A stretch of DNA of 63,159 bases, filler included, from Chrysochromulina tobinii (Eukaryota): assembly GCA_001275005.1 (NCBI GenBank). It is 11 parts of 11 records of this genome, joined end to end, with 100 filler letters (N's around TTAATTAATTAA, not from the genome) between each part and the next. Parts side by side here need not be neighbours in the genome. Positions count along the whole stretch, not along the records: positions 27,813 to 36,197 come from JWZX01000061.1; positions 36,298 to 40,869 come from JWZX01000062.1; positions 40,970 to 47,243 come from JWZX01000063.1; 8 more parts are not named here. One strand, 5' to 3'. Shown one piece after another: positions 9,364 through 55,578 of the stretch (its first letter is position 1; each line of letters starts with the position of its first letter). The notes beneath the pieces are model-generated. The model saw nothing but the letters and a program-made list of their open reading frames with translations, was not told the DNA's origin and made no database searches. A program made the position numbers and the translations under genes.

Positions 9364-9369
9364 GTGCGC

Positions 9370-9932: not shown

Positions 9933-10585
9933 TCACCGTGGCCGCGCTTCGTGTACAGCACGCAATCAGGTGCAATCAGGTTCAATCAGGTGCAATCAGA
10001 TGCAATCGGATGCAATCAAGGGAGCCAGCTGGGCGCGGAGCACCTGCCAATCAGATGCAATCAGGACCGCATCGCTGCACGGGCTACCCGGTTGGCATCA
10101 GGACGCTAAGTTGGGGCCTGTGTGTGGGGCACGTGTTAAACGCGTTTACACGCATCTTAGATAAAATGCGTAAACGCACCTACCCGCGTATACGCACCCC
10201 CCGGGTATACGCACCTACCTGCGTATACGCACCCGACGCTGCGTTTACGCAGGGACGCGACGAACGTCATGTAACCTCCGCTGCCGGACAGAGGGGCTCA
10301 CCAAGCATGAGCACCGGAGCACCGCTGCGGAGTCGGCAGCTCGCTTCGCCACACGTCGGCAGTTCCGTCGCTGTTGACCTCACCTGAGCTATAAGTAGCA
10401 GGTCACCTCTCGAGCACCGTGCTCATGTTCGGGCGCTCCGCTGCGCGCTGCGCCCAACACTCACTGCCAAGCCCCCCCCGCACATGCGCCCTCTCTCTCT
10501 CTCTCGCATGCTCTGCGCATCCGCAAGCGCCCGGGACGGCGTTTCCCTGGGAGCGCAATTCCGCACGCATCGCCCGGGACGGCGC

Positions 10586-30984: not shown

Positions 30985-33900
30985 CTAAGAATCGAATTCG
31001 CGGCCACGCTCGTTCAGCAGGCCTATCACCTCCCTTTCCACCATCCTCTCGCCAAATGTCTCTCGCTTGCGCTTCGGGTCGAAGACGCGGCGCAGAACCC
31101 CTTCCGCAAACTGGCGAGGCTGGTGCGCGGTGATGCGGCGCGCGGCCAGGCCGCGCGCCATCGCCATCCGCGGCGGCGGCGGCACCTCGGTCGAAATCCC
31201 TCGCTGCAGGTAGCGGGGGCTCGGCCTCCGCCCGGGCTCCGTGGAGAGCGCGCCGTCGTGGGCGCCGGCGCCGTCGTGGGCGACCGGCTGAAGGACGCGG
31301 TCCGTGCGCGTCGTGTCGAGCGGCTCGGCGCCGGGCGGCGCAGGTGCCCACGACGGCGCAGGTTTCGGCAGCTCGCCGCGCGCGAGCGCGGCGCGCTGTC
31401 GGAGATCATCAATCTCCGCCGCCGAGAATGCGTGCCCATTCCGCACCTGCGCGCAAGAACAGCGCAATCATGCGGTCATCAGAGAGGCAATCCGAGGCAC
31501 TCCGAGGCAGTCCGAGGCAGCTCCGCATGGTACGCAGACCTTTTCGGCGGTCTCGGCGGGGACGGAGTCGATGAGCCTCAGGTAGCCCTCGAGGAGATCT
31601 GTAGGGAGATATGGGGAGATATGGGGAGATATGGGGAGATCAAGGGAGATCAGATGGGATCAAGGGAGATCGCACCTGGGCGCACGAGGAGCTCGAAGGG
31701 GTCCTTGCCTGCCTGCTTGAGGGCTGTAACCGCTCCTTTGACCTCTATTTGACCTCGAGGTCCAGATTGGCCTTCCACTGCGCGATCTGGCGCTTGCACT
31801 GGGCCTGCCGGGTCCACACTTTGAGCATCTTGCCGTGCTCGAGCTTTGCGATCTCGTCCACATTCTGGTAGGGAGAACAAAGGAGATCAAGGGAGATGCT
31901 CGAGCTTTGCGATCTCATCCACATTCTGGTAGAGCGCCTCGTCCTTGATCGTCAGGCTCATCAAGGGCAGTCAAGGGCCATCAAGGGAGATCGCACCTGG
32001 CAGAGCGCCTCCACCTTAATCTCCACCTTCTGATTGCGCCGCTTGACATAGAAGCGATCGCGTAGCTTTTGGTTCCAGTAGCCCGGGATGGCATGGTCGA
32101 GGTGGGCGACGGCCAGCAGCGCGCGCTCGCCGTACGGTCGCCAGAGGGACTCGGACTCATCGAGTGCCTTGAACTGCTCGACACTGAGCACCTGCCAAAT
32201 ATGGAGATATGGCATCAGGCCGCATTTGGGTTGGGGCGACGCGCGCCGTGGTGAGCGCGCGCACCTTGCCGTCGCAGACTGCCTCGAAGGCCGCCATGCC
32301 GCGCAGCAGCAGCAGGTTGACTTCACTCAGCGCGTGCCCATGTGCGAGTACCTATGGCATACGGGCGTGGGCATCAGAGAGGCCCTCAGAGGGCTCATCA
32401 GAGAGGCCATCAGTGCTGATGATGGAGGCCATCAGCGCTCATCAGAGAGGCACTCAGAGCTGATGATGGAGGCCATCAGCGCTCATCAGAGAGGCACTCA
32501 GAGCTGATGATGGAGGCCATCAGCGCTCATCAGAGAGGCCATTAGAGCTGATGATGGACGCCATCAGCGCTCATCAGCGGGCACCTTCTCGACCTCGACC
32601 TCGAGCACACACTGGAGAGCGCAGAAAAGGAGCTGGATCCGCTCGTCCTCATCGGCCATCGAGCCGAGCATCTGGCGCACGAGATCGGCGGCCTCGCGGT
32701 TCGTTAATTGGTCCGCGGCCGCTCCGAGATCGAATCTGGGCGAGCTCGGGCGAGATCGCTCCTCGTCGTGAGCTCGCGCCTCGCCCGCGTCGTCCTCGGC
32801 GCTCGGGACGGCGCGCGACCAGCGCACGCGCGAGGAGGCGCTCGGGACGGCGCCCGCACGGAGCGCGTCTGCCGGCGCCGTGTCGAGCGCCACCCGCATC
32901 CCGAGCCGCTCGCTCCCCGGTGGGCGCCGTGTTGAGCGCCGCGTCCTCTCGGGCTTGAGGCGGGAGGCGCCCGTGAGGAAGGTGACACGTGGCGCGGGTG
33001 CGACGCCCTCCTGCCATCAAGGCTCATCAAGGCTCATCAAGGTCAATCAAGGCTCATCAAGGCTCATCAAGGCTCATCAAGGCTCATCAAGGCTCATCAA
33101 GGCTCATCAAGGCTCATCAAGGCTCATCAAGGGCAATCAAGGGCCATCAAGGTGACACGTGGCGCGGGTGCGACGCCCTCCTGCCGCGCCCCAAGCTCTT
33201 GATTGTCAGGCTCATCAAGGTCAATCAAGGGCAATCAAGGGCTCATCAAGGGCAATCAAGGGAGATCGCACCTGCCGCGCCCCAAGCTCCTCACGCAATG
33301 CGAGCGCCCATTGCCTGCGGCGTTGCTCGGCCTCGGACTCGGCGAGGCGACGGACCCAATGAGGGAGTTGGGGTCGGTCGTCGGACACCACGTGCGCAGG
33401 GCGCACCTGGGCGGAAGGGGGGGGGCGTGGGCGCCGTGGTGAGCACTTGCATGCGCGGGGGGGACTGCGGGCGCGGGGCGCCGTGGTGAGCACCTCGATC
33501 GCGTTCGGCGCGGCGTGGTAGTACAGCGACACTTGGGAAGGCACCTGTGGGGAAGGGAAAGGGGGGGGATGGGTCGCGCTCTGGTGAGCACTTGCATGCA
33601 AGGCGACGTCGAGGGGCACTTGTCAAGCGCCGTCGTGGGCACTATTCAGCGCGCCGTCGAGGGCACTCTCTGTAGCGCGCCGTCGTGGGCGCACCTCGGA
33701 AGGCACCAGCCCGTCCTTGAGCTTCTGCAGCCACACCGGCGTCTCCTCCCCCGCCGCCCCTCCGCCCCACCAGTCGGCCGAGCGCGTCAACGGCTGCTCG
33801 GCACGGCGCGCCCCGCCCATGGGCGTCGTCGTGGGCGTCATCGGGCTGCACAGCCCACTCGCAGCGAGCGCGCTCGGGTGTGGAAAGAGCGACTCGCGCA

Positions 33901-35988
33901 TCGCGCCGAGCTGGGCGCTCTCCTCCCTCTCCGCCTCCCTCTGCGCCGCCGCCTCCCTCTGCGCCATCGAAGGCGGACGAGGCCACGCGGGTGGCTCCTC
34001 GCCGCCGCCGCGCAACCCCCACGCCGCCCAACGGTCGCCTACCGGTAAGGCGGGCGCCGTCGTGGGCGCCGTCGTGGGTGGCGCCGTCGTGGGCGCCGTC
34101 GTGGGCGCGCCCTCGATCGAATCGTACCGCAACGGCGCGGGCTCGGTGCCCACGACGGCGCCCACCCGCCCACCGCCCGCCGCCTGCGCCGCCGCCGCCG
34201 GGGTGGCGCTGTCGTGGGCGCCGTCGTCGTCGATGGCCGACGTAGCCGAGTAAAAGGACGCTTGCTCGGCGAGTGTGGCCCGGTGGAAGAGCAGCGCCGC
34301 GGCGCCGTCGTGGGCGTCCATCGCAGAGGACGACGGTGCGTACGGGGGCGGCTGCGCGCCGTGCTGAGCACTTGCATGCGAGGCGGGGGGCGGGGCGGGG
34401 GCGGCGTCTGGAAGGACACGTGCCATGTACCTGTGGGAGAGGGAGGTCGACGCGCCGTGATGAGCACTTGCATGCAAGGCAAGGCAAGGGAGATCAAGGG
34501 AGCTCAAAGGAGATCGATGGAGATCGATGGAGATCGATGGAGATCGATGGAGATCACGGGAGATCACGTACTGCTCGAGCGCCTTTTGCTCCTCCGGGCC
34601 CCAACTGAACTGAGCCTGGGCAAGGCCACGGAGGAGGCGCTGCGGATGCTCCCACGCGAACCTGCGGGAGGGAGCAGCGCTGTGATGAGCACTTGCATGC
34701 AAGGCAAGGCCACGGAGGAGGGTTGGGGATGCTCCCACGCGAACCGAATCGAGGCGGGCGGGGGCGCCATCTCGGGCGCCGTCTCGGGCGCCGTCTCGGG
34801 CGCCGTCTGGTACGCGCCCGAGTCGACTTCGTCGTCGTCGGTCGCTGTGTTGGGGCGGGCGGTGGGCGCGACACTGGCGGCCGTGCACTGGGCGGTGGGC
34901 GCGACACTGGCGGCCGCCACGTGCGCGTTGCGATCCGTCAGACTCGACTGCTGCGCGCCGTGAGGAGCGAATGCATGCGCGCCGTGATGAGCGCATGCAT
35001 GCGCTGGCTCCACCGTGATGACGGCCTGATGAGGCGTGATGAGAGCGCCACCCGCCGCGGGGATCATCTTAATGAGGGCGCCATCCGCCGAGGGGAGCGA
35101 CGTGGGCGGCGGCATCGACTGCCGCGCCGCGCGCGCTGCGATCCGTGCAAGCCGGCGCTGCTTGGCGACTTGGACGCCGGAAGAGGGGGGCTGGGCTAGG
35201 GGGTTGGCGGCCACCCGCACGAGCGCCGCCTCGAGCGCCGCCTGCCTCGCCTCCTCCGCCGACGCCCACCGAGCGGCGCCATTCACGTGTGACGAAATCG
35301 CGTGTGACGAGCAAGGGCGTGCCGAGGCAGGGCGTGACGAGGCAGGCCGCGAGCGCGCGGAGGTGGGGCGCGATGGGCGCAGCGAGGCGTGCGCGCGGCC
35401 AAGACTCTGGCGCTCAGCCTGGCGCAGATTCTCGCTGCTGCTCTGCAGAAAGCGCTCGTCCCACACGGGAGGGACGGCGGCGATGGCGGCGGCGGCCGTC
35501 GGAGGCGTCGCGTCGTCGGGCACCATCTCGGCTCTCGTCGCCGAGTCCTCGCCGGGCACGGCGCTCACGGAGCGGCAGGCGTCGGGGGCGGACTGCGGGC
35601 GTGGTCCACGGCGCCACGTCGCGCCGCCCGGCTGCGGTCCGCCGATTGCGGACACGACCTCCTCCCAATCCTTCGCCTTCCGTCCCACCTCGCCGCCCGC
35701 GAGGCGCTTGGAGAGCATCGAGGCCGCGAGCGCAGCCCTGCGACCCGCGTCATCGAGCAGAGGGCGCGCATGCGCCGACTGCGGCCGCACCGGCTCGTGC
35801 GCCTCTCGCTTGGGCGGCGGCCGCCGATGCCGCAGCTCCTCGGGCAGCAACGCGTTGAAGTTCGCCCGATCTATCGCTTTCAAGGCGGGCCACACCGGAT
35901 CGGCGGTGAGACCGATCGGCTTCTCCGGCAGGTGATGAGGCCACGTGCGGAGCTCGCCGTTGGGCTTCACGATCAGGCGCAGGTCCAT
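30985..35988 (-). CDS. hypothetical multi-exon protein; predicted introns 34744-34662, 34571-34431, 33706(or 33694)-33545, 33493-33407, 33271-33011, 32584-32352, 32264-32192, 31996-31865, 31675-31599, 31539-31447
   Basis: Removing these GT-AG introns joins the ORF-track fragments in frame from ATG 35988 to stop 30985, apart from one 11-nt insertion at ~31743-31753. Confidence 0.75.
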
Positions 35989-36297
35989 CCTGGACGGTCG
36001 AAGTGAGAGGATGCCGTCCGTGCCGACCGCCTTCGCTCCGGGGGGGTTGTGAGCCCGGCGAACAGCCGAAAAAAGGTCAGCTCAACCCTGCCCATCCTCA
36101 TTCGTGTATATGTTTAGAGTGCTACCGCCGGCTTCCCCACCCCCGTTTGTCGTTTGTCGTTTCGGTGGTGAGGTTCTCTTACTTTAGTCACTTTAGTNNN
36201 NNNNNNNNNNNNNNNNNNNNNNNNNNNNNNNNNNNNNNNNNTTAATTAATTAANNNNNNNNNNNNNNNNNNNNNNNNNNNNNNNNNNNNNNNNNNNN

Positions 36298-39200
36298 GGC
36301 GAGGGAGGAGGAGGTGGCGTAGATAGAGTCGATAAAGTGCCAGATGGTGGCGGGGCCGATGCCGCCAAAGGTGGTGATGACCCACGGGAGGAAGAGGCGG
36401 CCGCGCGCGGCGGAGCCTGAGGCGTGTTTGGCGGTTTTTTCGGCGGCGCGGGCGGTGATGATGGCGTGGGCGTCAAGGGCGGCGGCGGCGGCATAGGAAG
36501 GGAGGAGGGGGCAGCTAATGGTGAAGTCGATGGCGGTGGAATGTTCGGAGGCGAAGGAGGAGAGGACGAGGTCGACTTTGGTGCCGGAGGTGAGGGAGGA
36601 GTGGAGGTTGGTGGAGGTAGAGGCGTCGAGGCCAGCCTCGGAGCCGAGGTGGTGGGCGACGAGGCGGGCAAGGTCGTCGTGGCGGCGGTGGCGAAGAGGG
36701 CTGGCGCCGCAAGTGATTTGGTGGTAGCAGTGGCGGTGAGTAGGGTAGAGGCAATGGTTGGGGGCGATGGGTTTGGCGACTGTGACGGTGGTGCATTTTG
36801 GGCGGCAGCGGAGGGAGGCGGCCGGGGTGATTGAGGGGGGAGGGATGCCTAGGCGGTGGCAGATGAAGAAGGTGAATTCGGCGTTGGTGAGGAGGGCGCC
36901 CTGGGGGATAGAGTGGGCGGTGAGGAGGGAGGAGGCGCCTCGGAGGGCGCAGGCGCGAAGGCGAGCGGCGGCGAGGGGGTTAGAGCACGTGGCGAGGCGG
37001 GTGGAGAGGAGGTGCCGGGAGAGAGCGTGGGAGAAGACGGATTGTGTATGGCGGTGTGCGAGGAGGCGAATATTGGCGATGGAAGGGAGGTTGGTAGATG
37101 GGTCGAAGAGGAGGGAGTGGACGGTGTCGTGAAGGTCGGAGTCATAGGGAGGTGGGACGGCGAGAGTGGGTGTGGAGGTGATGGCGGAAAAGACGGCGTG
37201 GAAGGCGGCAAGAGTAGGAAGTTGGGAGGCGGCGAAGGTGGTGGGGTCCGAGACGAGGGGGCGGAGGAGCGGGTTGAGGGAAAGGGCGGGGAGGCTGTCG
37301 ATGAGGGAGGCGGCAAAGGCGGCAAAGGCGAGGGTGGTGGGATCGGGGAGGGAGATGCCGCCGGTGGTGGTGGGGAGGCGGAGCTGGAAGGCGGTGAGGA
37401 GGTGGCCGTCGGAGAGGAGTTTGGTCGGGTTGATGCGAAGGATGGTGGCGATTGCAGTGGCGGCGGCGGTGTGCGCGGCGTCGGTGAAGGTGGGCTCGTT
37501 CGGGGTGGAAGGATGGGGGGTGGCGGTAATGGAAGGGGGGGTAAGGCGGAGGTGATGGTTGAAGTTGGTTTGGGGTCGGAGGCAGAGGGTGATGATGAGG
37601 ACGGCGCCGTGGGCGTGAACTGCGGGGATGGAGGTGAAGTGAAGGAGGCGGGCGCGGTAGGTGGCGGTTAGGTCGGCGAGGAAGGCGCGGCGGCCCTCTG
37701 GTGTGCCAACGGGTCCGCCGGCGAGGCGGTAATGTGAGGAGGTGACGGTGGCTTCGGGGTGGAAGTGGGCGGCGGAGTGGCGAATGTGGAGGGGGCTGTC
37801 GTTAGGGAGGGGGGGTTGGAAGTGGGCGCCTTTTTTCGGGGCGATGCTGAGGCGGAGGCGGGAGCGGAGGAGGTCGGAGATGGCGGCGGCGGCAATGGGA
37901 TAGAGAGGGTCGGTGGCGGCGGAGAGGGAGGGAGGGAGGGTGATGGTGGTGTCGTCGTGGATGAGGACGGGGGGTGGGAGTGGTGGGTGGGAGGGCGGGA
38001 GCCGAATGGAGAGCAGTGCGTCGCGGATGGCGATGGAGAAGGTAAGGTTGAAGGCGTAGCCCGCGATGCCGCAGCCTTGGTCGAGGCCGTCGGTTTGGTA
38101 GTAGGTGGTAAAGGTGGAAAGGGTTTGGACGAGGGTGGGGCCGGGGGTGGAGTAGAAGAGGAGGAAGTAGGTGAGGGCGTCCGCATCGGAGGCGGAGGCG
38201 TGCTCGTCGTGAATGTGGTGGAGGAGGGTGGCGTGGACGGCGCAGCGGGCGATAGAGGTGTGGGCGTTGACGACGTCGAGTAAATGGTGGATGAAGTGGG
38301 GGTAGCGCTCGTTGATGAGCTGCATTTGGTGGACGGCGGTGTCGCAGCCTGCAGGGGAATTGCCGAATTGACCTAGGGATTCGAGGAGGGGTCGTCGGTG
38401 GCGGGTGACGGCGCGGGCGATGCGGCGGGCGAGGTGGCGGCGGAAGACGTTGTGGCGGCAAAGGGGTCGGACAGCCTCAATTTGGGCGACGGAGGTGGGG
38501 TAGGTGCCATCTGAGAGTTGCTTGCACTGGCCGGACGTGGTCTTGGTGGTAAGGAGGCGGCGGTGGGCGGGGGAGAGAACGCCGCGGCGTATGGAATCGA
38601 GGAGAAGGGCGAGGAGGGGAAGAACGGAGGGGGAGAGGAGGTAGGCGGTGCGGGTGCCGGTGCCATCCGGTGCGCCGCCAGGGTGGGCTCGGATGGATTT
38701 GGACCAGGTTTCGATGACGGAGGCGCGGGTGGTGGGGTCATAAATGCGGGCGGAGGTGCGGTGGTTCGGGCGAATCTGGGGTAGGACGTCGGCGGCGGTG
38801 TTGACGAGGTCGGAGGAGAGGTTGAGGTCGGGGTTGGGGCCGCAGGGGACCTTGGCTAGGAGGAGGGGCGCAATGGCGGGGAGGGGGGGGGCAAAGGGGA
38901 CGGAGTAGATGCGGTGGAAGGCCTGGGCGGGGGTGGTGCGGGCGAGGTGGTCGTTGATGATAGAAGGGAGGCGGTCTTGGTGGATGGTGTGAATGGTGGC
39001 GTCAAAGGCGCGTTTGGAGTTCCAGTCGTGGGCGAGCCAGAGCTGAGAGGCGCGGCCAAGGCGGAGGTGGCGGGAGCGGGTGGAAAGGGTGTTAGGGAGG
39101 GCGGAGCGGGGTTCGGAGGGGGGCGGTGGGAAGAGGAGAAGGCGCGGAATGGCGTAGAGGAGGGAGCAGGCGGCGTCGTTGGTGACGTCGGAGAGGAGGG

Positions 39201-40560
39201 CGTTGAGGGCGACGATGTAGATGGCGTCAATGGCGGCGGCAGCGGCGGAGGGGATGGTGGGGAGGGCGGCAGAGTGGACCTCGTGGAGGAGGGCGCGTGT
39301 CGGGGGGGGTGGAGGCGAGGAACGGGAGGTTGGCGGTAAGGGCGTGAGAGGGAGGTGCGTCGTGGGCGGTGGGGTCGGGCGCCGTGGCGGTGGTGAAGTC
39401 GGTGGTGACGTGGGCGTCGGTGAGGTCAGTGGCGGTGGCTGCGGGCAATGGAGCTGGAGAGGGCGCGTGGGCGCAGTTGCGTGCGTGTTTGGCGAGGGAG
39501 GCAGGGTTGGAGTAGATGGCGTCGCGGCAAAGTTTGCAGCGGAAGAGGTAGGGGACGAGGGCGGAGGAGGGGATGTTGGTGAGCGGGAGGTGAGCGGAGC
39601 GGTAGTGCTGGGCGAGGGCTGAGGCGGAGGGGAAGAAGAGTGGGCCGGAGCAGGGGCGGAGGAGGCAGGGTATAGGAAGGTCGGGTGGCGGGTGTGGACT
39701 GAAGAGGCGGGGATTACGGTGGGAGGGGTAGGGGGTGATCCGGTGGGTGCGGGGGTGGCGCGGGCGGGGAGGGGAGTGGTGGGGGCGGCGAGGGTGTCGT
39801 CATCGGGGTGCCACCTCCCCCCGAGTGGGCCGACGACGACTCCACCCACCCCATCTCCGACCAACCCGCCGTCTGCGTCCTCACCTGCGGCCACCACCTC
39901 TGCCACCCTTGCATCTCCAACACCATCACCCTCCTCAATAACAACCCCCAGCACCCCGACCTTTCCCGCCCTTGGTGCCTCCGATGCCCCCAACCAGCAC
40001 CACCCGGCCTGTACACCTCCAACCCGCCCTCTCCTATTTCCAGCCACCGCGCCGCCTCGAGCGACGTCCCGCCCTCCACCATCCAAGCCTCTTCCCGCCA
40101 CCGCCGCTCATAGTGAAGGAGGATGTGGCCGAGGGCGGCGGTGTAGGATGTGGCTCGGCAGCCGTAGCCGGAGGCGGAGGCGGGAAGGGCGGAGGCGGAG
40201 GTGGAGATGGTAGTGGCGAGGGCGGAGGGGGAGGCGGCGGCGGGGGTGGGAGCGGTCGCGGCATAGACGGCGTCATAGGTGGCCATGTAGGTGGTGGTAT
40301 TGGCGGGTGGGAAGTAGAAGGCGGGGTTGGGGGAGGAGCGGTGGGCGGCATGGGCGAGGGCGGAGGGGGTGAAAATGGTGTGGGCGGGCTGGGTAGCGGG
40401 GGCGGTGGAGGTGGGGGGGGTGGGATCGAGACTATTCGTGTCGAGGTGGTAGAGGAGGTTACGTGAGCCATCGGTGAAGCCTCGGATGGAGGGGCCGGAG
40501 AGGAAAGGGTAGAGAGGCGCGGCGGGTTGGTCGGTGGAGGATTGTGAGGACTGATCATCT
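36298..40560 (-). mobile_element. non-LTR retrotransposon, CRE/SLACS-like (RT + zinc knuckle + restriction-like endonuclease), 3'-partial
   Basis: RT motifs VRPLCRHNVFRR, QFG, LDVVNAHTSIAR, GLDQGCGIAG, IHDD, LAGGPVGT and LRLPTTTGGISL. Then C..C..H...C, RHDDL, KVDL...IDFTI, EKTAKH and FLPWVITTFGG. Confidence 0.9.
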
Positions 40561-40969
40561 TCACCATTTTCGTCTTCGCTCGCCCGACATTCTCGCCTTC
40601 ATCGCCTCCACTGCTGTTGCCACCATTGCATCCGCTAACGCCACCGCCGCCCAGTCCTTCAACCTACCCACATTTGCCCACTTGCCCATCTCAACACCCA
40701 TCGCCTCCATCACCGCCACCATCGCCGCCACCATCGCCGCCATCCTTCCCGCCGGCGCCGCCGCAAAGACCGCCGCCGCCCGATCCGCCGCTACCGCCTC
40801 CCCCGCACCGCCACCCCCACCGCCGTCGCCCCGGTCGCATGGCAAAACTGCCGGCGATCGGGCACGGCTNNNNNNNNNNNNNNNNNNNNNNNNNNNNNNN
40901 NNNNNNNNNNNNNTTAATTAATTAANNNNNNNNNNNNNNNNNNNNNNNNNNNNNNNNNNNNNNNNNNNN

Positions 40970-43900
40970 GTGCAGGGGGGGCGAAGGGGGGGCGGGCGTC
41001 GGGGGTGGCCGAGCTGTTGGCTGTGTGGGGAAGGCGGAGGACACAGCGTAGGGCATCCTGTGGCACGTGTGCGGCGTGGCCAGTCCTGCGCCTGCGGGCG
41101 CCGCTGCCACCTCCTCGTCCACCACCGCCTCATCCACCTCCTCGTCCGCGTCCTCGTCCTCGTCCGACGCGCCAAGGTGCCCCTGACGGCGCCCCGACGC
41201 GACTCGTGACGACGGCGGCGCCGCCACCACACCGACTGCCGCGACCGTGCCCACCGCCGCCTCCGCCGCCGCCGCCGCCGCCGCGTACTCCTCGTGCGCG
41301 CCCGCGTACAGCCGCCACTCCTCCTGCGGCGCCGCGATCGCGCCCGACACGGCGCCCTGCGCGTAGTAGTAGTTGCCCGCCACCGCGGCGGCATGGTAAT
41401 AGTTTCGCGCCACCTGCTCAGCGACGGCCGCGGCGCGCCAGCTGGCGAGGAAGGCGGCGAGGGAGGGGCAGTGGGCCGTGCGGACCACGCGCAGCAGCTG
41501 TGCCAGCCTCGCCTTCTCGGCCACCTTGAGCGCCGTCGTGAGCGCCGACTGCTGCTCCTTGCCGAGGCGCTCCTGTGCGAAGCGCACGTCCGCCTTGCCG
41601 CGCTCGAAGACGGCGCGCGCCTGATGCGGCAGGCACTCGGTTGCAATGAGCGACCATCAAGGGGCACTCAAGGCAGCTCGCGCCGTCTCGGGCACATTCG
41701 GGCACGGCGCGCGCACCTCGAGCAGAGTCTGTTCGACCTTCTTGACCTGTGCCCGCGCCTCATCGCGCTCCCGAGTGAGCGTATCGAGCTTGGCGCCCGC
41801 TGTCACGCGCGACGTGGCCATCTGCCTCTCGGCCACCGTCGACCGATGTGCACCCTCATCCACGAGCGAGCGCATGTGCACCTCCGCTGCGACCGCTTGC
41901 TCAGCACGGCGCTGGAGCGCCTCGGCACGGCAGGTGAGCTCGTGCACGCGTGTACAGTACTCTCTGGAGCAGCACATGGCCTGCCAGCGGCTCCATGCAC
42001 TGTCGAGGGACGCGCGCTCCCAGTTCTTGCACGGCTCGCACGCACCGGCTGCCGCGAGCCCGCCCACGCGCCGTATCGAGCGGAGCGACGACGCCGCATG
42101 CGAGCTGCTCACCATCGTCGCGATCTCTGCCCACGTCGTCTCCGCCGCCACACGGGCCCAGCGGCCGAGCGCCGCCGTGAGCGTCGCGAGCACGAGGGTC
42201 TGGCGCACCTGATGAGGGGAGCAATCAAGAGGTGTCATCAGAGGTCATCAGAGCGCCGCCGTGAGCGTCGCGAGCACGAGGGTCTGGCGCACCTGATGAG
42301 GGGAGCAATCAAGAGGTGTCATCAGAGGTCATCAGAGCGCCGCCGTGAGCGTCTCGAGCACGAGGGTCTGGCGCACCCCCACCGCCAAGAGGACCACGAG
42401 CTGCGCGCGCGCCCTCTGCTGGAGCTGTGAAACGGCGCTGTGAACCGCCTCTTCCCGGGTCGCCTCGGCCTCGAACAGCGCCGTCTCGAGCGCTCCACGC
42501 GCCGCGATGAGCGTCTCCAGTCGCGCCGTGTGGGCCACCTCCGCCGTGTCGAGCACGCTCAGCATCGCGGCCGTCGCGCACCACTTCAAGAACGCGCCGT
42601 GCCGGGCGAGCCATCGGAGGCGCGCCTCGGCGCCCGATGCGAGGGCGAGGGCGCGCAGCTGCGCCTCCACACGCGGCAACACCTCGTGCGCGGTCACGAC
42701 GCCGAGGCGCACCTGTGGGGGGAGGAGAGGGCGCCGTGGTGAGCACATGCATGCTGGGAGAGGGCGCCGTGGTGAGCACATGCATGCTGGGGAGGAGAGG
42801 GCGCCGTGGTGAGCACGTGCATGCTGGGGAGGAGAGGGCGCCGTGGTGAGCACGTGCATGCTGGCGGGAGGGTCACGACGCCGAGGCGCACCACTCCTCC
42901 AGCGCCGACTGGCGCCGCTACCACCGCCGCCGCCGCCGCCGCCGCCACCGCCACCGCCACCGCCGCCGCTCGGCTGCACCGCCGAACGACCAAACGCGCT
43001 GGCCGGTGTAGTGAACGAAGGGCCAACGGCGGCCGAGGTGCCCTCATTGGCGCTCACGAGAAGCGCCGCCGCGAGCGCCGCGGGGGTGTGCTGCTCGAGC
43101 GCCTGCCGCTCGCGCTTCCGAGCTGCGTGCTCCGCGGCGATCCGGCGGTTTCGCTCGGCAGCCTCGCGCCGCGTGGCGAGTACAGCCGTCCGCTTGGCAG
43201 CCTCGAGCTCCGCCGCGTGCTGCTCGGCGAGATTCTCGAGATTGAGCTCGGCGGCGAGGGCCGATCGAGCATTCAGCGCGCGCGTCTCGGCGAGCGCCGA
43301 CGTGCCGCGCAGCTGGCGGCGGAGCGGCGCCAGCAGCGACAGGCCCTCGAGCGACACCGCCGCGCGTCGCCAGCGAGAGAGGGCGGAGAGGCAGGTGGCG
43401 CGCTGAGCGGCGCCCGCGGCCGCGATGAAAAAGTTAGCCGCGAGCGCCTTGCGCTGTTGCAGTGTCTGCTGGGCGGCCGTGCGGGCGGCCTCGAGGGCGG
43501 CGTCGAGTTGGGCGGCGAGCTGCGCATTGAATTGCGAGAAGCTCTCGCCGGCGGTGGAGATGGTGTGGGGACCTGTGGGGATGGTGTGGGGACCTGTGGA
43601 GATGGTGTGCGGACCTGTGGGGACCTTGCCGTCGACGGCAGCAGCTCGCGCCGTTGCCGTCGACGCGTCGCCCTTGGCGGCTCTCGCACCATCCCCATCG
43701 ATAGCGTGCGCGGCGGCCTTGGCGGCGGCATTCGCGAGCTGCAGGGCACTTCGTGCGGCCGCGGCCGACGCTTCCGCTGCGGCCGTCGAGGCTGCGGCCG
43801 AGGCGGAGACGGGGCGGCTGCCTGGTCCCCAATTTGTCATGGCGGTCTCGAGGGCGGCGCGCGCCGCTTCGGCCGCGGCCGCCTCCGCCTCCGCCGTCAC

Positions 43901-46389
43901 CGTCGCCACCTCGGCAGCGGCGTGCGCCGAGCGGAGCGCGTGGCGTAGCTTGGCAGTGTCCTCCTCGGCTCGCGTGCGGCCGCTCGCCTGCTCCGCGAGA
44001 GCCGAACGCGCTGTGGTGAGCATGTGCATGCAAGGCAGGCCCTCAGAGGCCATCAACGTGCCTGCTCCGCCAACGCCTCCTCGACCCGTCTCAGCCGTGC
44101 CTCGAGTTCCAAACGAGTCGCCTGCGCCGCCGCTGCATCGTCCGCACGCGCCGCCTCGGCAGCGCGCGCCTCCGCCCACGCGACCTCCATCTCGCGCTGC
44201 ACCTCGGCCAAGCGCGCCGCCTCCGCCCCCTTGCCCGCCGCCGTGGCGTTGCGCTCCGCGGCGAGCGCCGCCTCGAGCGCGCGCCGGTAGCCGCGCCGCT
44301 CCGCCTCCTGCATGCATGCATGCAGCGCCTCGGCGTGCGTGAGCGCGCCCGCCGCCTCCGCCCAGCCACGGAGGGCGCTGATGAGCCGTCGGGCGCGCAC
44401 GGCGCGCAGGTAGCTGCCGAGCGCCACGAGCTTGCACAGCCGGCCGAGGCTCTCGAAGCGCTGACGCTCGGCACGGCGCTCCTCGCGCCCCTCGGCTTCC
44501 TTGAGGCTCAGGGCGAGCTCCGCGCGGGCGGCGACCGCCGGCCCGACCGCCTTCTCGCGCTGGAGCACCTTAATCTTAAGCTCGAGTGCGGCACACGCCT
44601 CCTCGGCGGCGAGCCGGAGCCGGCGCTCCTCTGCTACGGAGCTCTCCTTCATGAGCGGCCGGATCTCGAGGTGCGAGATCGTCGCCTGCTGCTGCTGGAT
44701 GCGCGCGAGCACCGCCCCATTCTTGGCGTGCGCGTCCGCCGCCACGGCGCCCGCGCGCCAGCGGTGCACCGCGCGCGCGAGGCCGGTCGCACCGAGCTGC
44801 ATCAGCGTGCCCAGGATCATCTGGGCCGCACGCTCGTCGCGCTTCTCGCGCTGGTCACGGTTCACCACAAGCTCGTGCGCCTTCTGCTGCCTCACCTGAT
44901 GAAGGAGGCAATCATGGGTCATCAGTGATCATCACAAGCTCGTGCGCCTTCTGCTGCCTCACCTGATGAAGGAGGCAATCATGGGTCATCAGTGATCATC
45001 ACAAGCTCGTGCGCCTTCTGCTGCCTCACCTGATGAAGGAGGCAATCATGGGTCATCAGTGATCATCACAAGCTCATGCGCCTTCTGCTGCCTCACCAGG
45101 CCTTCGCGTTGGGCACTGAGCAGCTGCCGCTCGCGCTCGATGAGCGCACGCTCGGATCCAAGCTCCTCTGCGCGCGACTCGAGCTGCGCCGAGGCGCGTG
45201 CGCGCCAGCGCTCGTTGCCGTGCACGACCTTATTCCGCTCGGCGAGGATCAGGGCGTAGCTCTCGCGCGCGTGCGCGAGCGCGGCGCTCAGCACGATGCC
45301 AAGCACACTCCGCCGCCATGCTGCCACGCCGCGGCCGAGCCGCTCGGCACGGCGCGTGTCGAGCAGCCGCCCGAGACGACGCGTTGCCAGCCTCCGGAGC
45401 GCGTCCTCCTGGGCGCTCGCGCGTCGCCACGCCGTCAGGCGGCGATCACTGAGCAAGTCGTCTCCGGCGGCGGCGGCGGGTGCGCTGACGGCGCTAGCGG
45501 CGAGTGCGCTGGCGGCGCTGGCGGCGGATGCGCATGCGGCGGCGGCGGGTGCGGTGACCGGCGTGGGCTCAGGGACCGAGAGCGCTGAGCTGGCGGCCGA
45601 GGGCGCTGAGCTCGCAGCGTGGCCGCCGCCGCCACTCAACCCGAAGAAGCTCAGCAGCGCCACAGCAGCGGGCGGAGGCGCCAGCTGTGGCGGCGGTGGC
45701 GGCGGCGGCGCTGCTGGCGGCGGGGCGGCGGTGGCGGTGCTACCCGTACGCACCCCGTGCGTGGCAGTCGCGCCCGCACTCAGCTGCGACGCGTGCAGCC
45801 GCCAGAGGGCCACCGACCGCGCCAGCGGCAGCGCGCTGCCCTTGTCGAGTAGCCGGCCGAGCGCGCGCGTGCGCGCCGCCTGGCGCACCGCCTGCTCCTT
45901 GCGCCTCGCCTCAGTGGCCGCCAGCTCGAGGGCCTTGAAGCGCACTCCGTAGCCCTTGTGCCGAAACTCCGTGGCGGCCGAGGCGCGCTTCACGGCGTCG
46001 AGCTCCTCGGCCGCTTGTCGCGCCTGCTCCTGCGCGACCAGGGCGCTCGCCCGCGTGTCGCCGAGCGCGTTGGCTCGCCTCTCGGCCAGTGCCTTGGCAT
46101 TGCGGAGCGCCAAGGAGCTCTGCTCCGACGTGGCCGTCACTGCGAGCGCCAGCAGGGCGCGCACCCACGCGCTGAATGCTCCCGCAAGCCGCTCCTTGAC
46201 GGCCTGCCGAAACGCGCCGAGGGTACGGCTAGCTGCGAGCGCACGCTGCTGGCCCCGTTGCGCCGCCTCGGCCGCCTCGCGAGCCAGGAGCGCCTCCTGC
46301 AGCTGACCGACGAGCTCGCGCTGCATGCGATGGGGCGGGGAGACCAAGGACGTCGCCGCCGCCGGTGCCGGGCCGCCGCCGGTAGCCAT
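40970..46389 (-). CDS. long coiled-coil protein with repeated W-R helical motifs; predicted introns 45096-44896, 44061-43988 (GC-AG), ~42891-42713, 42376-42209, 41716-41621
   Basis: ORF fragments join in frame across four introns. The frame across the 42.7-42.9 kb intron next to a (GGC)n tract is unresolved. Confidence 0.7.
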
Positions 46390-46473
46390 GAAGGCCAGGC
46401 GCAATTGCAACCCCAATCAAGGGGCGCCTGCGCGCCTCGCGCAGCCTCGCGCCTCCCAGGCAGGCCCCCCGCC

Positions 46474-47243
46474 ATGTGGGGAAACGCAAATTCGTGGCTC
46501 GCTGGGCTTTCAAAAGGTCAGCCAATTCAAGAGAGAAGAGTTTTAGGCGAACGCGCGTATCACAACCACATGCACCCGCTCACCGAGCCTCTCACAGCGG
46601 CAACACGAGCGTCCATCACCTTGCCACCCTCTGAGCGGCCGCTCTTCATAGGCAAGCACTTGCTTGCGCAGGCGCAGAACGCCAAGACCCTGCCCACGGC
46701 CACGTCGGCCAGCGGCACTGCCACCATCTCTAAGGCCGCGCTGCAGCAGGAGCTCGCTGCACTGGCCAAGGTTCTCACGGCCGCGCTCAATGCGGTGAGC
46801 GGATTACCGGGCTCTTCGCTGCAGCGGCTGGCCGACCACCTCATTGTGGAATATGGTGGCGCGTCCGATACTGCCCCCGCCTATGCGATTGCCACCGCCC
46901 GGCCTAATTCCTTGGACGATGGGGACGACACCAACCTCGACGACATCGACGACGACGACGGAGCTGTGCGGCCCACCGTGGCAATTGGCCCACCGCCCGA
47001 GCAGCTCGCATCTCGGGCTTCTCCGGAATCGCCATCTCTCGCCTTGGAGCGAGGCCATAAGGCAGCACCCGAAGACAAGAAGGTTGCCGAGACAGTGCCC
47101 GTGACGACCGACAGCGCGCCTACGGAAGTTGTGGAGCCGGCAGCCGGGGCGGCGACGGAGGCAGAGTCGGCGCAGGCAGTGGCGTCGACCGAGACCAGGA
47201 TCAACCCGATCTTCGAGATCGGCAAGTCCATGGTAAACGCGAG
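46474..47243 (+). CDS. hypothetical protein with two Dpy-30/RIIa-like helical motifs, 3'-partial
   Basis: AYHNHMHPLTEPLTAATRASITLPPSERPLFIGKHLL and LAKVLTAALNAV...LQRLADHLI. Confidence 0.45.
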
Positions 47244-51183: not shown

Positions 51184-52020
51184 TTAGTACCCCTTAGGCG
51201 AATGCTCTCTGTACCCCTTCGTTTTCGCTCGGGTTCATGCCCAAATCGAAAAAAGTTTTGTGGGTGATTATTTAAGGTAAGTTTTGGAGCCCGTTAACGT
51301 TTAATTGCCATCTCGGCAAGACGCACACCCACAGGTCCCGTGGAGACACAACGCGGGGGGCGCAAGGGTTCGTCGCACTCCAGTCTCCACAGTTTGAGTT
51401 TCGGGCATGATTTCGGGGAACGCGGAATCGGGAATGGTGCCCCAAGAAGTGGGCAATGTGTTTTTTCGATATGGCCCTCTCCCTATACGCACCAGTCGTG
51501 CATGTCGGGCCACTGAATGCAGGTCCCCTCGGAGGGCCGCCGCAGGCGCTGACCGGACCGAGCGCTACCCGGACCCGACCGGGGGCGGGCGGCGGGGACG
51601 GGACAGGATGGGGAATCGGAGTATCGGACAGGGGCGACACGAGTGGACTATGGACGAGAGGAACTACGGTCGACGCCCCGGCGCAGGTGATCGCGCGCGG
51701 CGGGAAGCCCGGCGAGACGCGTGACAAGGCCTCGACCCTCGTGTCGACATCGCTACGACTCATACTCATACACCCGCTCGCCTTGGGCCCCGTCGAGAGA
51801 CGTAACCGCCACGGTGCATGCACCCGCTCGCCTTGGGCCCCGTCGAGAGATGTAACCGCCACGGTGAAGTCGAGAGTGCCCAACGCGACGCGTTGCCGCC
51901 ACGGTGAAGTCGAGAGTGCCCAACGCGACGCGTTCGCGCGGGCCACCCTCTGCGCTCGGCACGGCGCTCATGGCGCTCGGCACGGCGCTCGTTGCTCTGA
52001 GCGCACCATGCTCGGCACGG

Positions 52021-52213
52021 CGCTCACTGCTCGTACGCATGCACGGCGTCCACAAAGGCGCTCGGCACGGCGCTCACTGCTCGTACGCATGCACGGCGTC
52101 CACAAAGGCGCTCGGCACGGCGCTCACTGCTCGTACGCATGCACGGCGTCCACAAAGGCGCTCGGCACGGCGCTCACTGCTCGTACGCATGCACGGCGTC
52201 CACAAAGGCGCTC
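52021..52213. repeat. 50-bp tandem repeat x4 made of the hemE 3' end
   Basis: Units start at 52021, 52071, 52121 and 52171. The last unit is the real CDS end. Confidence 0.95.
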
Positions 52214-53337
52214 ACGAGCTCGGGCTTCTCTTTGCCGGAGAGGCCCTCCATGAGGTTGGCAATCAGCTTTTGGCCTCCGAGGGCATCCAGCATCGCCTTG
52301 GTGGCTGCGCGCACCTCGGCCTCAGAGCCGTCGACGAGGAGCTTCGGGTCGAAGGCGCCCTGCAGGCACACGGGTGGCAGGCTCGAGCGCACCGTCGCCC
52401 AGTCCGCGGTGCTGTCGAGCGTGAGCACGTCGAAGCCGCACTTGCCTAATGCGGGCAGCGCGTACGCGGCGCCTCTGGGGAAGACCATGAGCGGCACGTT
52501 CGGGTGGCGCGCCTTGAGCTGCGCGGCGATGGAGCGCATGTGCGGCAGCGCGTGCTGCTCGAAGGCAGGGGGCGTGATGAACTCGCCCATCGCCTCGAAG
52601 AGCTGCAGCATATGAGCGCCGTTCGCCGCCTGCAGGGAGAGATACTCCACCACGATGCGCTCGAGGGCATCGAGCACCTTGGCCGACTCGCCCGGGTGCT
52701 CGGTGAGCCAACGCTCGCCGTTCGCCTGCCCCTTTTTGGACGAGCCGCCCACCATGTAGTAGAAGAGCGTCCAGGGCGCGGCTGAGAAGCCAATGAGAGG
52801 CACCTTGCCATCGAGACTCTCCAGAATCAGCCGTACCGCTGCGAGCACGTGCGCGAGCTCGGCTTCGACGAGCGCCTTGGCGGCGGCCGCGTCGGCGGGC
52901 AGGGTCAGGCGCGCCAAGTCCGCGGGCGAGCTCATCGGGTTCGTCACGAGGATGCCCTTGCCGCCGGGCATCTCGACGTTGATGCCCATGGCCTCGGCGA
53001 CGACGAGGATGTCAGAGAAGAGGATGGCGGCGTCAACGTTGTAGCGGCGCACGGGCTGCATGGTGCACTCGGCGACGTCCGTCGGGCTCCGCAGCAGCTC
53101 GAGGAAGCTTTTGCCCGTACTCCTCTTGTACTCGTTGTACTCGGGCAGATGGCGGCCCGCCTGACGGAAGAGCCACACGGGCGTCTTCTCGGTGGCCTCA
53201 CCGCGTGCCGCGCGCACCATGAGGTCGTTGCGCAGCGCGGTGGCGGTCGAGAGCGCCGCGCCCACGTCCACGAGCAGCACGAGCAGCAGCGGAAGCAGCA
53301 GAGCCGTCGGGGCCGATTGCAGCCGGGACATTGTCAT
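52174..53337 (-). CDS. hemE: uroporphyrinogen decarboxylase with N-terminal signal peptide (likely plastid-targeted)
   Basis: [38 protein letters not shown] and LQGAFDP. Confidence 0.96.
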
Positions 53338-53484
53338 CGTTCGTCGGAGATTGGTTCTTGCGAAGTGGCAATTAGGAAAGCAATCTACATGTAAGTCAAG
53401 TCAAGTCAAGTCAAGTCCGTATGGTTGTCTGTTGTTTATGTATAGACTTCACTTGACTACATGTACGCGAATGTGCCCACGGAA

Positions 53485-55578
53485 CGGATTTGTCAATCAA
53501 CACGGTTCATTAAAACGGAAAACGAAAACTAGTAGAAATGGCACTGGTCCGTCACACGGACGCTCGCCCCGGCCATCCCTCGGCCTTCCGCTTTGAAGAC
53601 ACCTTCCGGGGTGGGGGGGGAGCCGGGACGAACTAACGAACTACATGTATATTCTGGAGGGGAAATAGACAATTAAAAGGAGCCAAAGGAGCCTCCTGGA
53701 ACACCCTCTGTGCCTGTCCTTCCCACCCTCCGAGAGTTTATGCGCTCGCCGAAGAGCCGGATTGCTTCGTCTCGAAGTTCCACAGACGATTGCCGATTGC
53801 TTTTGCCCTCGCCCAGGAGAGAAGCGGCGAGCCCTGTGTCTCGCCGGTGGGCTTGTCGAGGTGAGAAATCTGCTCCTGTGCCAACCGCGCACATGCCCAC
53901 TGCTGCCTGAGCTCAGCATGGCTTGAGAGAGAGAGGGCGGCGGTCTCGCAGGCGGCATCAAGAAGAAGAGGTCGAAGAAGAGGGCGAAGGGCGAGAAGTC
54001 TCACAAGCAGCGGCAAGATGCAGCACGACCGGGCTTGGCCCGCGAGGCATGAGGGTCCGGTACTGCCCTTCGGGGAGCGTGAGCCAGGTACTCAACTGCG
54101 CGCAGGCCTTTCGACCACGAGCACCTCGGCCGAAGCTCAACCAGGCATCAGGCTCAATCCCCTCCCCTCCCTCCCCTCCCTGCCTGCCCCTGGCAGGAGC
54201 TGCTCGACTACAGCAAAGCGGAGCCCCTCGACGGTTTCCTGCTGCGGCGTCCCCTGACCTGCGCGGGGTGCGGAGGGGTGGAAGGGGCATAGCTTTTTCC
54301 CACCAGCGCGCGGGCAGCAGTACTGTATCGTGTATCCGCGGGAGGTACCGACCACACGCGAGGAGAACGGCGTAGGAAAGGGTGGGCGGAGAGGATGGAA
54401 TGTATGCCCAGACCGCTAACGCTCACCGGGCATGCTGACCTCACGCTTCCCAACGTGATGAATGCCGCCCGACTGTGACGCGCGCCTATGGGCCACCCGT
54501 AGCAGTCGTCGACGCGGTGCACTGATCGGCGCCCCTCAGACCACACCAACAGGGGAATAGCTCGCGACCTGCCACGCTCCTCGAAGGAACGCAGGCCCGG
54601 GTGGATAAGCTGGCTTCGAGCCCCCCGCGAAGTCATAGGCCCACTGAAGCGGTGGTCTGATCAGAGAGAAGAGCGGCCATCCGCTCGACTCAGAAGGTGG
54701 GAATCGTAGTAGATGCCGAAAGGTTTGCTCGGCACACGCTCCTCACCGTGGTGTCGCGAGGGGGCTTCGGCTTGCGCCACCTCACCCGCTCGCGCTCAGA
54801 CAAGCCCCCGCTCGACGCCCCGGCCCAGCCTGCCGCGGTTCTGACGGACAGCAGCAGTAATGGGCATACTCTGAACAGCTGAGAGGAACTGTGCATGTAC
54901 TGAACAAGCATGCAATCATATCGTTAATGTCATCTCATGTGTAACGTCATACGGGGGAGAGTATCGAGAGTTGTGTCTTCGTGTGGTCGAATAAGTTCTC
55001 GCTTTCTCAAACACTCAGTCGACGATCGCGCTCTAGCTCTCGCTCTTCCTCAGGTTCTCCGGCACTCCGGGTCCTCACGCTCCGAGCCCCAGGGGCTACA
55101 TAGGGGTATTCGATTGCGCTTGTTTAGGTACTTGTGTTGTTTCGACTAATTAGCTTGCTTGCGGATTTGTCAACACGGTTCATTAAAACGGAAAACTAGA
55201 AATGGCACTGGTCCGTCACACGGACGCTCGCCCCGGCCATCCCTCGGCCTTCCGCTTTGAAGACACCTTCCGGGGTGGGGGGGGAGCCGGGACGAACTAC
55301 ATGTATATTCTGGAGGGGAAATAGACAATTAAAAGGAGCCAAAGGAGCCTCCTGGAACACCCTCTGTGCCAGTCCTTCCCACCCTCCGAGAGTTTATGCG
55401 CTCGCCGAAGAGCCGGATTGCTTCGTCTCGAAGTTCCACAGACGATTGCCGATTGCTTTTGCCCTCGCCCAGGAGAGAAGCGGCGAGCCCTGTGTCTCGC
55501 CGGTGGGCTTGTCGAGGTGAGAAATCTGCTCCTGTGCCAACCGCGCACATGCCCACTGCTGCCTGAGCTCAGCATGGC
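53485..55578. mobile_element. ~430-bp direct repeats (53485-53922 and 55162-55578) flanking a copy of the 8.2-8.7 kb repeat family
   Basis: Near-identical repeats are visible and give duplicated ORFs in the track. Confidence 0.7.

Follow-up and report, generated by a model that had tools for sequence, protein, structure and literature searches.

The origin of new spliceosomal introns has been debated for a long time, and it is the subject raised by a window of Chrysochromulina tobinii DNA (the whole stretch analysed, 63,159 nucleotides). The original prediction held that many introns in three unrelated genes (9.1-9.4 kb, 31-36 kb and 41-46 kb) consist of a direct copy of the adjacent exon plus a recurrent module, that removal of the clear cases restores the reading frame exactly, and that they may have arisen by a mechanism different from that of known introners, such as templated repair or target-primed insertion. 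The question is whether such units are genuine introns, how common they are, and which process could have produced them.

Anatomy and expression of the intron units

The window is composed of 11 contigs with N/stop-linker spacers between them. The span 30985-45100 covers two genes on different contigs, both on the minus strand, with an unrelated contig in between. Units with an exon copy occur in two mirror forms, and the list below also gives those without one; the forms are an exon copy starting with GT followed by a module ending in AG, or a module starting with GT or GC followed by an exon copy ending in AG:

44896-45096, minus strand: intron B1, three tandem units, each a downstream-exon copy that begins with GT joined to a module that ends in AG; the anchored copy is 34 nt long
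43988-44061, minus strand: intron B2, module starting GC plus 9-nt upstream-exon copy ending AG; predicted from sequence, no RNA joint seen
42713-42891, minus strand: insert B4, 21-nt downstream-exon copy plus tandem module units ending AG
42209-42376, minus strand: intron B5, two units, each with 42 nt copied from the downstream exon and a 10-mer-repeat module ending AG
41621-41716, minus strand: intron B6, GT..AG, with a weak offset exon copy only (about 11 nt)
34662-34744, minus strand: intron A2, gapped downstream-exon copy starting GT plus branch-point module ending AG; removed in the 1027-codon model
34431-34571, minus strand: intron A3, module-bearing; exact copy of 4 nt only
34352-34405, minus strand: insert A4, 10-nt duplication plus module; frame-neutral as assembled
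33545-33694, minus strand: intron A5, module-bearing; anchored copy at most 4 nt
33407-33493, minus strand: intron A6, module-bearing; anchored copy at most 4 nt; RNA contigs depart from the DNA near its boundary
33011-33271, minus strand: compound intron A7, module with 18 nt copied from the upstream exon, followed by a duplication of 37 nt
32352-32584, minus strand: intron A8, 10-mer-repeat module without exon copy; bridged by RNA contig X15 record 21
32192-32264, minus strand: intron A9, module-bearing, exon copy at most 4 nt; bridged by RNA contig X15 record 21
31865-31996, minus strand: compound intron A10, module plus degenerate upstream-exon copy, then a second duplication with local-module filler
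31599-31675, minus strand: intron A11, private 5' module common to A7 and A10, without exon copy
31447-31539, minus strand: intron A12, 10-mer-repeat module without exon copy
9208-9286, plus strand: predicted intron (GC..AG), module starting GC plus about 26-nt upstream-exon copy ending AG

Among the 15 units scored in the two minus-strand genes, with the compound units A7 and A10 entered through their first halves, seven have an anchored exon copy of at least 9 nt. These copies measure 34, 9, 21 and 42 nt in B1, B2, B4 and B5 respectively, and in the 31-36 kb gene 18 nt exact (longer with a gap) at 34662-34744, 18 nt at 33181-33271 and 25 nt, degenerate, at 31926-31996. The compound units hold two more duplicated inserts, one between 37-nt copies from 33185 and 33015, with the same local 10-mer repeat as filler, and the other between copies from 31932 and 31871. 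Modules are present in the remaining 8 units with an exon copy of just 0-8 nt; hence many of the introns, not all, are of the duplication type. B2 belongs to a daughter subfamily found at the loci L043, L067 and L099. The segment 43573-43624 is an in-frame 21-nt exon tandem and not a needed intron, and Rfam gave no match in the window.

The expected RNA junctions were exact for two introns. B1 is skipped precisely (201 nt, plus-strand ends CT..AC) in two of the four RNA runs, X13 and X15; the depth at the joint is 2-2.6 and the gene is covered by RNA only, so that an insert-free allele is compatible with the same skip. It is the sole clean duplication-type intron with a direct RNA joint, and its retention would stop the frame at codon 447. 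Likewise, B6 is skipped exactly (96 nt) in run X13, and its retention leads to a stop, as does that of B5, within which one RNA contig falls and for which no joint was seen; joints in the 41-47 kb gene were judged within its RNA-covered parts. A3 is probably spliced, as RNA contig X14 record 15 departs from the DNA at its boundary, and RNA contigs depart from the DNA at 31676, at the edge of A11, in three runs. Other units are retained, and efficient splicing of every clear case is thus not upheld: X14 record 15 runs unbroken over 34225-34426 and thus keeps A4, the start of A7 is kept in X13 record 7 and X15 record 22, and A10 is kept in contigs of X14 and X15, where it stops the frame. At A10, X13 contigs end at 31997 and others begin at 31868, a pattern suggestive of a branch between spliced and unspliced forms. 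Runs X19-X21 contained none of the searched words.

Exact restoration of the frame stood for B1, B2, B5 and B6 and for the 31-36 kb gene, which yields a 1027-codon model with its predicted introns removed, but failed for B4, where exact removal breaks the frame as assembled and retention keeps it open. The RNA retention of A10, A4 and the start of A7, together with the failure of B4, counts against the model of introns made by break repair that is favoured below.

The footprint beyond the window

The genome-wide counts refer to 130 loci (563 kb) of related metagenome contigs recruited by one module pattern; every site thus entered through a module, and other filler sequences lie outside this sample. 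The exact 24-mer pattern occurs in 134 stretches, with about 2600 estimated, and the module part alone is common to them. For one branch-point module, 88 of 109 single copies are flanked by direct repeats, whereas 6 of 600 controls are. This strong excess bears out the combination of exon copy and module well beyond the window; the 9.2-kb example is likewise real. Module filler is present in 88/88 of these sites by search design, and in 6/88 both splice sites lie inside the repeat. Acceptor-anchored copies were found at 76 of 102 GT-followed CCCACAG sites (controls 12/167) and, for a second module family, at 33 of 59 (17/92); donor-anchored copies were found at 27 of 45 (4/44). These control sets exclude chance for both anchored forms and for the direct repeats, and the two mirror architectures are upheld. 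A general splice-site-anchored repeat detector returned 780 noisy matches with no control and was discarded.

Duplication length is variable, as predicted, with copies evenly spread over 10-45 nt (the lower bound being our threshold) in introns of 64-109 nt; inserts measure about 45-55 nt, copy and insert length are inversely related (rho -0.63), and up to half of an intron is a locus-specific exon copy. The branch point is predicted to lie about 23-33 nt ahead of the AG. Perfect copies account for 28 of 85, and 107 of 2250 bases are mismatched. Third codon positions take 48 of 98 copy mismatches, which is the expectation if the intron copy drifts freely. Before the donor, AG is present in 32/85 sites and absent in 53/85, and 17/85 have no G. 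Terminal inverted repeats were indeed lacking (score 3.08 against 2.96 shuffled, 85 inserts). Once the splice consensus is allowed for, homology of at least 4 nt at the exact junction shows no excess (3/30 against 1.8 expected), a point against the break-repair reading favoured below.

Both mirror forms derive from overlapping halves of a single sequence. A common footprint is left by at least three unrelated module types, and tandem copies of whole units are common (for example B1, B5, and L028 compared with L064). Linkers and tails are common to unrelated genes; their rank correlation overall is nil (rho 0.004), and joint linker-tail matches exceed permutation (7 against 1.1, one of the seven being an orthologous pair). 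The predicted sharing of modules among unrelated genes stands, but it is more apt to regard each module as a fragment of an existing intron, with the branch-point region and either the donor or the acceptor end, than to regard them all as a single reusable element. The module pattern had no match in viral contigs, and no RNA fold is shared by four introns (z from -2.43 to 1.05). Of named organisms, Prymnesium parvum gave the closest match to the HemE gene, at 67%.

Insert length modulo 3 is random among spliceable inserts (36/36/31), and 9 of 12 unspliceable inserts are in frame (p 0.004), so that insertion is likely blind to splicing and filtered by selection. The ends of the unspliceable inserts vary on both sides, and coding sequence, too, contains the module, in inserts that are in frame, unspliceable or antisense. 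In a DHX37-like helicase (L018), three duplication-type introns break conserved motifs, one of them within Walker A; after intron removal 20 residues are left, against 19 in solved homologues.

Orthologues without the intron had been proposed as a check, and a clean present/absent insert was found in 2 of 9 compared pairs (L029 and L031, L104 and L012, about 98% identical orthologues). In one of the two, the repeat is perfect over 34 nt and could have been collapsed during assembly. Direct repeats also promote precise loss, and hence these empty sites are unpolarised. In a separate comparison, seven paralogue or repeat pairs from the sampled loci were uninformative on intron differences. Rare variants shared per pair reached 0.151 for modules on the same strand within 4 kb, and 0/2000 permutations were as high. 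The corresponding values are 0.033 for modules of different loci and 0.028 for modules on opposite strands. Similarly, the best module match lay in the same gene region for 24 of 103 (1.9 expected), but the signal counted per locus was not significant (18/32 loci, p 0.17). Such local similarity could stem from conversion among neighbouring introns.

Candidate mechanisms

In the reading we prefer, at a probability of about one half, a staggered break receives a segment templated by an existing intron, which gives inserts flanked by direct repeats. A staggered break or stalled fork would arise with a target stretch of 10-45 nt; repair would copy some of the sequence of an existing intron, frequently one in the same gene and with either DNA or the gene's own RNA as template, and then rejoin the ends, leaving an intron segment between two target copies with both insert ends free to vary. 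An acceptor-end insert landing before GT, or a donor-end insert landing after AG, would make an exact new intron, and the remaining inserts would likely persist in exons only when in frame. Each new intron would likely template another, so that unrelated module families could spread without a master element. We infer that the direction was gain, that a break-repair step was involved, and that selection shaped what remains. Variable-end junction overlaps are mostly negative because parents are rare in the sample. Plain DNA copying would sometimes pass the AG of the donor intron, and none of the inserts in the two sets inspected clearly does so, which counts against break-repair copying. The original prediction named the right pair of candidates, templated repair and target-primed insertion, either of which may hold; the footprint of Replitron-1, a third analogue, is similar.

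Target-primed insertion is the less probable member of the pair, though a possible one: a non-LTR retroelement enzyme would reverse-transcribe excised or nascent intron RNA at a nick, a second nick 10-45 nt away would duplicate the target, and truncation would give half-introns. The variable duplication matches the habit of non-LTR elements, whose insertions typically make variable target duplications in the portions of the accounts available (PMC9977147, PMC12278014, PMC2887409); inserts end at intron ends, and local similarity is confined to the same strand. A fixed 3' end with 5' truncation fits the acceptor-end form, but the donor-end form demands a template whose 3' end varies, the unspliceable inserts are variable on either side, and the inserts have neither poly(A) nor a fixed 3' tail. 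An open frame of 1269 codons (36301-40107) resembles reverse transcriptases (atlas score 0.97, RVT_1 clusters), but it has no Pfam match, sits on a separate contig and has no tie to the modules; it is truncated by the contig ends, with no second copy among the sampled loci. It is improbable that the modules are instead tiny non-autonomous copy-and-paste elements akin to Replitrons or Helitrons (HUH), in which a single end is fixed, the other is fuzzy and the duplication varies in length. Such elements would suit the donor-end form (AG followed by GT), the inherited tails and a short palindrome in the module core, selection for splice-site AG/GT confounding the fixed end. Against this, at least three unrelated module types leave one footprint, and the palindrome is absent from the 10-mer type; for the mirror form, a different target would be required and the fixed end would have to be the opposite one; neither end is constant in unspliceable inserts; the inserts measure about 45-55 nt, whereas Replitron-N1 is of about 910 bp; terminal direct repeats of the element are not evident by eye, and the four folded introns share no structure.

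Placed about equally low is the view that these are older introns whose ends were later rebuilt with exon copies by local duplication or conversion, the empty sites being precise losses. Whole-unit tandem copies are common, 8 of the 15 window units bear modules and no exon copy to speak of, and direct repeats favour precise loss; but the frequent lack of G or AG before the donor and the many perfect copies speak otherwise, and in-frame, unspliceable or antisense coding inserts are not remodelled introns. That the duplications are assembly artefacts or simply unspliced is very unlikely. The data are short-read contigs only, RNA contigs retain several inserts, and one DNA contig skips a 170-nt insert (32979-33148), which was set aside as its 37-nt repeat exceeds the assembly word length. 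Nevertheless, DNA contigs of run X4 cross 31253-32444 and 33430-34480 unbroken, so that the inserts there are not artefacts of this single assembly; the same inserts recur in different assemblies, most copies carry mismatches, and the exact RNA joints and the frame statistics also speak against this view.

Relation to known routes of intron gain

Introner transposons have been described, in the part of the literature available, as the only mechanism explaining bursts of intron gain (PMC12130899). Their described duplications are short, with a length that is constant within a family (3-9 bp; 3-8 nt in Polarella) (PMC9860276, PMC12130899, PMC11282704). Haptophyte introners include a family of a marine Chrysochromulina MAG with a 4-bp duplication and no terminal inverted repeat (PMC9860276, PMC12130899, bioRxiv 10.1101/2020.10.14.339549, PMC11282704), and Emiliania fam24 with '10bp terminal direct repeats', which co-opts the 5' site and carries the 3' site (PMC9860276, PMC12130899). 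Like introners, the present units repeat intron sequence in unrelated genes, with one splice site carried and the other taken from a target duplication; unlike them, the duplication is of 10-45 nt and variable, mirror forms occur, and templates are probably often local. The transposon introners of Micromonas, Aureococcus and Polarella differ further in their terminal inverted repeats and fixed short duplication. The consulted part of the 2025 introner screen gives no family for C. tobinii, and the module motifs are absent from the searched part of the 2022 supplement; further 2025 and bioRxiv supplements may list related families.

Closer to repair are the Daphnia pulex introns ascribed to double-strand breaks, which, in the sections available, have 4-12 bp repeats and filler mostly of no known source (PMC4202315). 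There too an exon-end direct repeat flanks filler and is read as a staggered break, and the introns are polymorphic for presence; here the repeats are longer, the filler can be recognised as intron sequence bearing splice signals of its own, and the process recurs in many genes. As in tandem AGGT duplication (PMC3443670, as partly available), an exon copy enters the intron and supplies a splice signal; by contrast, the copy supplies one site only, a foreign branch-point module lies between the copies, and a target AGGT is unneeded. The available text on Replitron-1 of Chlamydomonas reinhardtii describes insertion 3' of RG, variable duplications and a fuzzy right end whose sequence derives from past the limit of the parent, and reports one Replitron protein in Chrysochromulina tobinii (PMC10288648). 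In the donor-end form the modules may resemble Replitron-1 and Replitron-N1 in having one end at RG, the other fuzzy and inherited from the parent flank, and a variable duplication; but Replitrons are far larger, have terminal direct repeats and one orientation rule, and intron-making is not reported in that text (PMC10288648). The R-loop reverse-splicing model for Micromonas, in its available part, similarly makes intron RNA a local template at transcribed genes with same-strand bias, but yields a whole clean intron, no long duplication and no half-introns (PMC4540971). No description of a long, variable exon-copy half-intron footprint was found in the searched literature.

The footprint likely marks a route to new introns that is distinct from the described intron-making transposons. 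Introns ranging from perfect to decayed copies record their birth, including the target, the duplication, the filler and sometimes a likely parent, and failed in-frame inserts beside successful ones allow mutation and selection to be separated. The host has culture-derived DNA and RNA data, which makes the mechanism directly testable. Decay of the exon copy would erase the origin, and this route could therefore be under-counted elsewhere. More tentatively, introns may multiply with no transposon to serve them: repair would copy the donor or acceptor half of any intron, often from the same gene or transcript, into a duplicated target close by, and the daughter thus budded would take its missing splice site from the exon copy. 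If true, budding introns would constitute an ongoing, self-feeding mass gain, which would tend to escape searches based on the similarity of entire introns.

Exon copies and modules in two genes

Introns that combine a direct copy of the adjoining exon with a recurrent branch-point piece (the module), together called the insert, occur in two minus-strand genes of the window, which was joined from 11 contigs by spacers. The intron units referred to here are as follows.

31-36 kb gene
34352-34405 (-), A4
33011-33271 (-), A7
32352-32584 (-), A8
32192-32264 (-), A9
31865-31996 (-), A10
31599-31675 (-), A11
41-46 kb gene
44896-45096 (-), B1
43988-44061 (-), B2
43573-43624 (-), B3
42713-42891 (-), B4
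42209-42376 (-), B5
41621-41716 (-), B6

The exon copy plus recurrent module of the original prediction was recovered, with an anchored copy of 9-42 nt in 7 of the 15 scored units of the two genes; the remaining eight have modules with a copy of 0-8 nt. The Rpn2 intron, an ordinary control, had no anchored exon copy. Within the window, A7, A10 and A11 have a private 5' module in common. An intron-like unit at 9364-9958 (+) carries a 10-mer module grown to more than 50 copies and a decayed upstream-exon copy at its end; near it, a 35-nt duplication with an opposite-strand module (9007-9116) is repeated near 9963-10049.

Other features of the window include an open frame of 1269 codons at 36301-40107 (-), with strong GC skew and ends cut by contig limits, which resembles a reverse transcriptase of the non-LTR kind, with an atlas score of 0.97 to RVT_1 clusters, seven unnamed homologues and no Pfam match. 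The best named relative of the HemE gene is from Prymnesium parvum (67% identity), which makes a haptophyte the probable source of the DNA, and a 50-nt tandem repeat of about four copies (51940-52215) overlaps the end of the gene. Non-coding blocks seen by eye to be repeated between or within contigs (8134-8728 and 53990-54830; 53420-53915 and 55165-55575) are possibly transposon remnants. A gene for a proline-rich protein, with a paralogue at the related metagenome locus L047, contains at 59990-60900 (-) a 153-nt repeat array that may be of RCC1 type.

Duplications and empty sites beyond the window

The module, searched as a 24-nt pattern, matched at least 134 stretches (about 2600 estimated), giving 130 loci. 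The matches listed hold 150 distinct module sites, 145 with full flanks and 109 with a single module; among them, a direct repeat spans the module at 88 of the 109 single-module sites versus 6 of 600 mismatched pairs. Likewise, an acceptor-anchored copy is present at 76 of 102 GT-followed CCCACAG sites (control 12/167) and at 33 of 59 sites of a second family with 10-mer repeats (control 17/92), and a donor-module-anchored copy at 27 of 45 (control 4/44). The donor-end form (module, then exon copy ending in AG) and the acceptor-end form (exon copy starting with GT, then module) overlap in one branch-point core, like two halves of a single intron sequence, and none of the 145 sites had both ends together.

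Of the 154 acceptor sites that carry a copy, 85 count as simple (GT/GC ends, 55-110 nt, copy of at most 46 nt, no other acceptor immediately before). Their introns measure 64-109 nt and their copies 10-45 nt (median 26), a variable duplication length as had been proposed; 28 copies are perfect, and the donor is preceded by G in 68 and by AG in 32. No terminal inverted repeats were found in the inserts, again in agreement with the earlier claim. As in introners, one splice site is co-opted from the target duplication; TIR-type introners, in contrast, have inverted ends and a fixed short duplication. The inserts also resemble the break-repair introns of Daphnia, described as having 4-12 bp repeats and filler of unknown source (PMC4202315), and a general survey reports repeats of 4-30 bp close to many intron boundaries (PMC11782384). 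The copy-plus-module architecture was not found described in the literature searched, which was mainly open-access.

Orthologous copies lacking such introns, which the original prediction had proposed to look for, are seen in two of nine aligned overlapping pairs, with an insert against a clean empty site at about 98% identity and the direction unpolarised.

L029/L031, 78-nt insert present in one member, empty site in the other
L104/L012, 81-nt insert present in one member, empty site in the other

One further pair of the nine differs by tandem unit number. In a DHX37-like helicase, 270 codons of conserved motifs are interrupted by three duplication-type introns and one other, and intron removal gives near colinearity with solved homologues.

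Reading frames and splicing

The claim that splicing restores the frame exactly was borne out for B1, B2, B5 and B6, whose removal the frame of the 41-46 kb gene needs. It failed for B4, where the assembled frame is kept by retention and broken by exact removal; B3 is an in-frame tandem. A GGC-rich tract at 42900-42975 coincides with an apparent frame shift of this gene; candidate causes are an assembly error, an unrecognised intron and compensation for an insert that is retained. The 31-36 kb gene, present in 12 DNA and 6 RNA runs that carry the label mixed-culture metagenome, has 1027 codons after removal of eight units. Its stop lies inside an 11-nt mini-duplication near 31745 (31735-31756, -) present in DNA and RNA contigs, beyond which a shifted frame runs for 195 codons, only with the last two introns removed; the mini-duplication stop may have truncated the gene recently.

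Over 40970-47243, four RNA runs were examined and yield two credible joints, each exactly where predicted: one of 201 nt for B1 (44896-45096, runs X13 and X15) and one of 96 nt for B6 (41621-41716, run X13). At B1 the first repeat has an identical part of 21 nt; since this falls below the 31 letters of the index words, a graph shortcut is unlikely for the B1 joint. One RNA contig spans A8 and A9 spliced, yet retains A10, and A4 and the start of A7 are retained in other RNA contigs. Contigs of X13 end or begin exactly at the parting and rejoining points expected of spliced versus unspliced A10, from which we infer a branch between the two forms. Taken together, the exact joints and the retained forms suggest that exact splicing of these introns can occur, though perhaps with low efficiency. 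RNA contigs at 46569-47243 (depth 12-20, about 12 differences from the DNA) probably derive from a paralogue or repeat copy. Whole units of exon copy and module, head to tail with no exon between, at L047:6670-6960, near the 1640 kb end of L062 and in L092, are candidates for recursive or alternative splicing.

Origin of the inserts

The lengths of exactly spliceable inserts divide 36/36/31 by mod 3, against 9 of 12 in frame (p 0.004) for inserts without exact splice and without acceptor tail. At L016:7037-7060 (+), one such insert, an antisense module with a 19-nt duplication (69 nt), lies inside the coding frame of the helicase and has a private variant in common with one of that gene's introns. 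Hence insertion seems not to need splice sites; the precise insert ends seem at least partly a product of selection. Rare variants are shared 4-5 times more by same-strand modules within 4 kb than by those of different loci or opposite strands. With five pairs of homologous exon flanks removed and loci picked by accession series against strain effects, the best module match was local for 24 of 103 versus 1.9 expected, the per-locus test being not significant (18/32). Tails are inherited between unrelated genes, for example in the B2 subfamily. Inherited tails and local variants fit existing introns as the source of the copies better than a single master element.

These introns would have arisen by templated copying of an existing-intron segment into a staggered break, to which we give a probability of about 0.5. 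The bias towards the same strand and the fact that no insert clearly extends beyond the AG lean towards an RNA template, and the variable ends on both sides towards repair synthesis. Retroelement priming as the source of the inserts is possible but rather doubtful. Replitron-like elements are an unlikely source, the likeness being that of the insert footprint to Replitron-1 (PMC10288648), and remodelling of old introns is slightly less likely still. That the duplications are an artefact is highly improbable: contigs assembled from DNA run X4 pass through inserts unbroken over 31253-32444 and 33430-34480, and summed depth reaches 560-2290 in module-bearing bins where the rest have about 40, which shows that the inserts exist and that the modules occur in many copies. 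The phenomenon is real and widespread and probably represents ongoing intron gain; its footprint is unusual, and there is a fair chance that it represents a distinct mechanism of intron gain.
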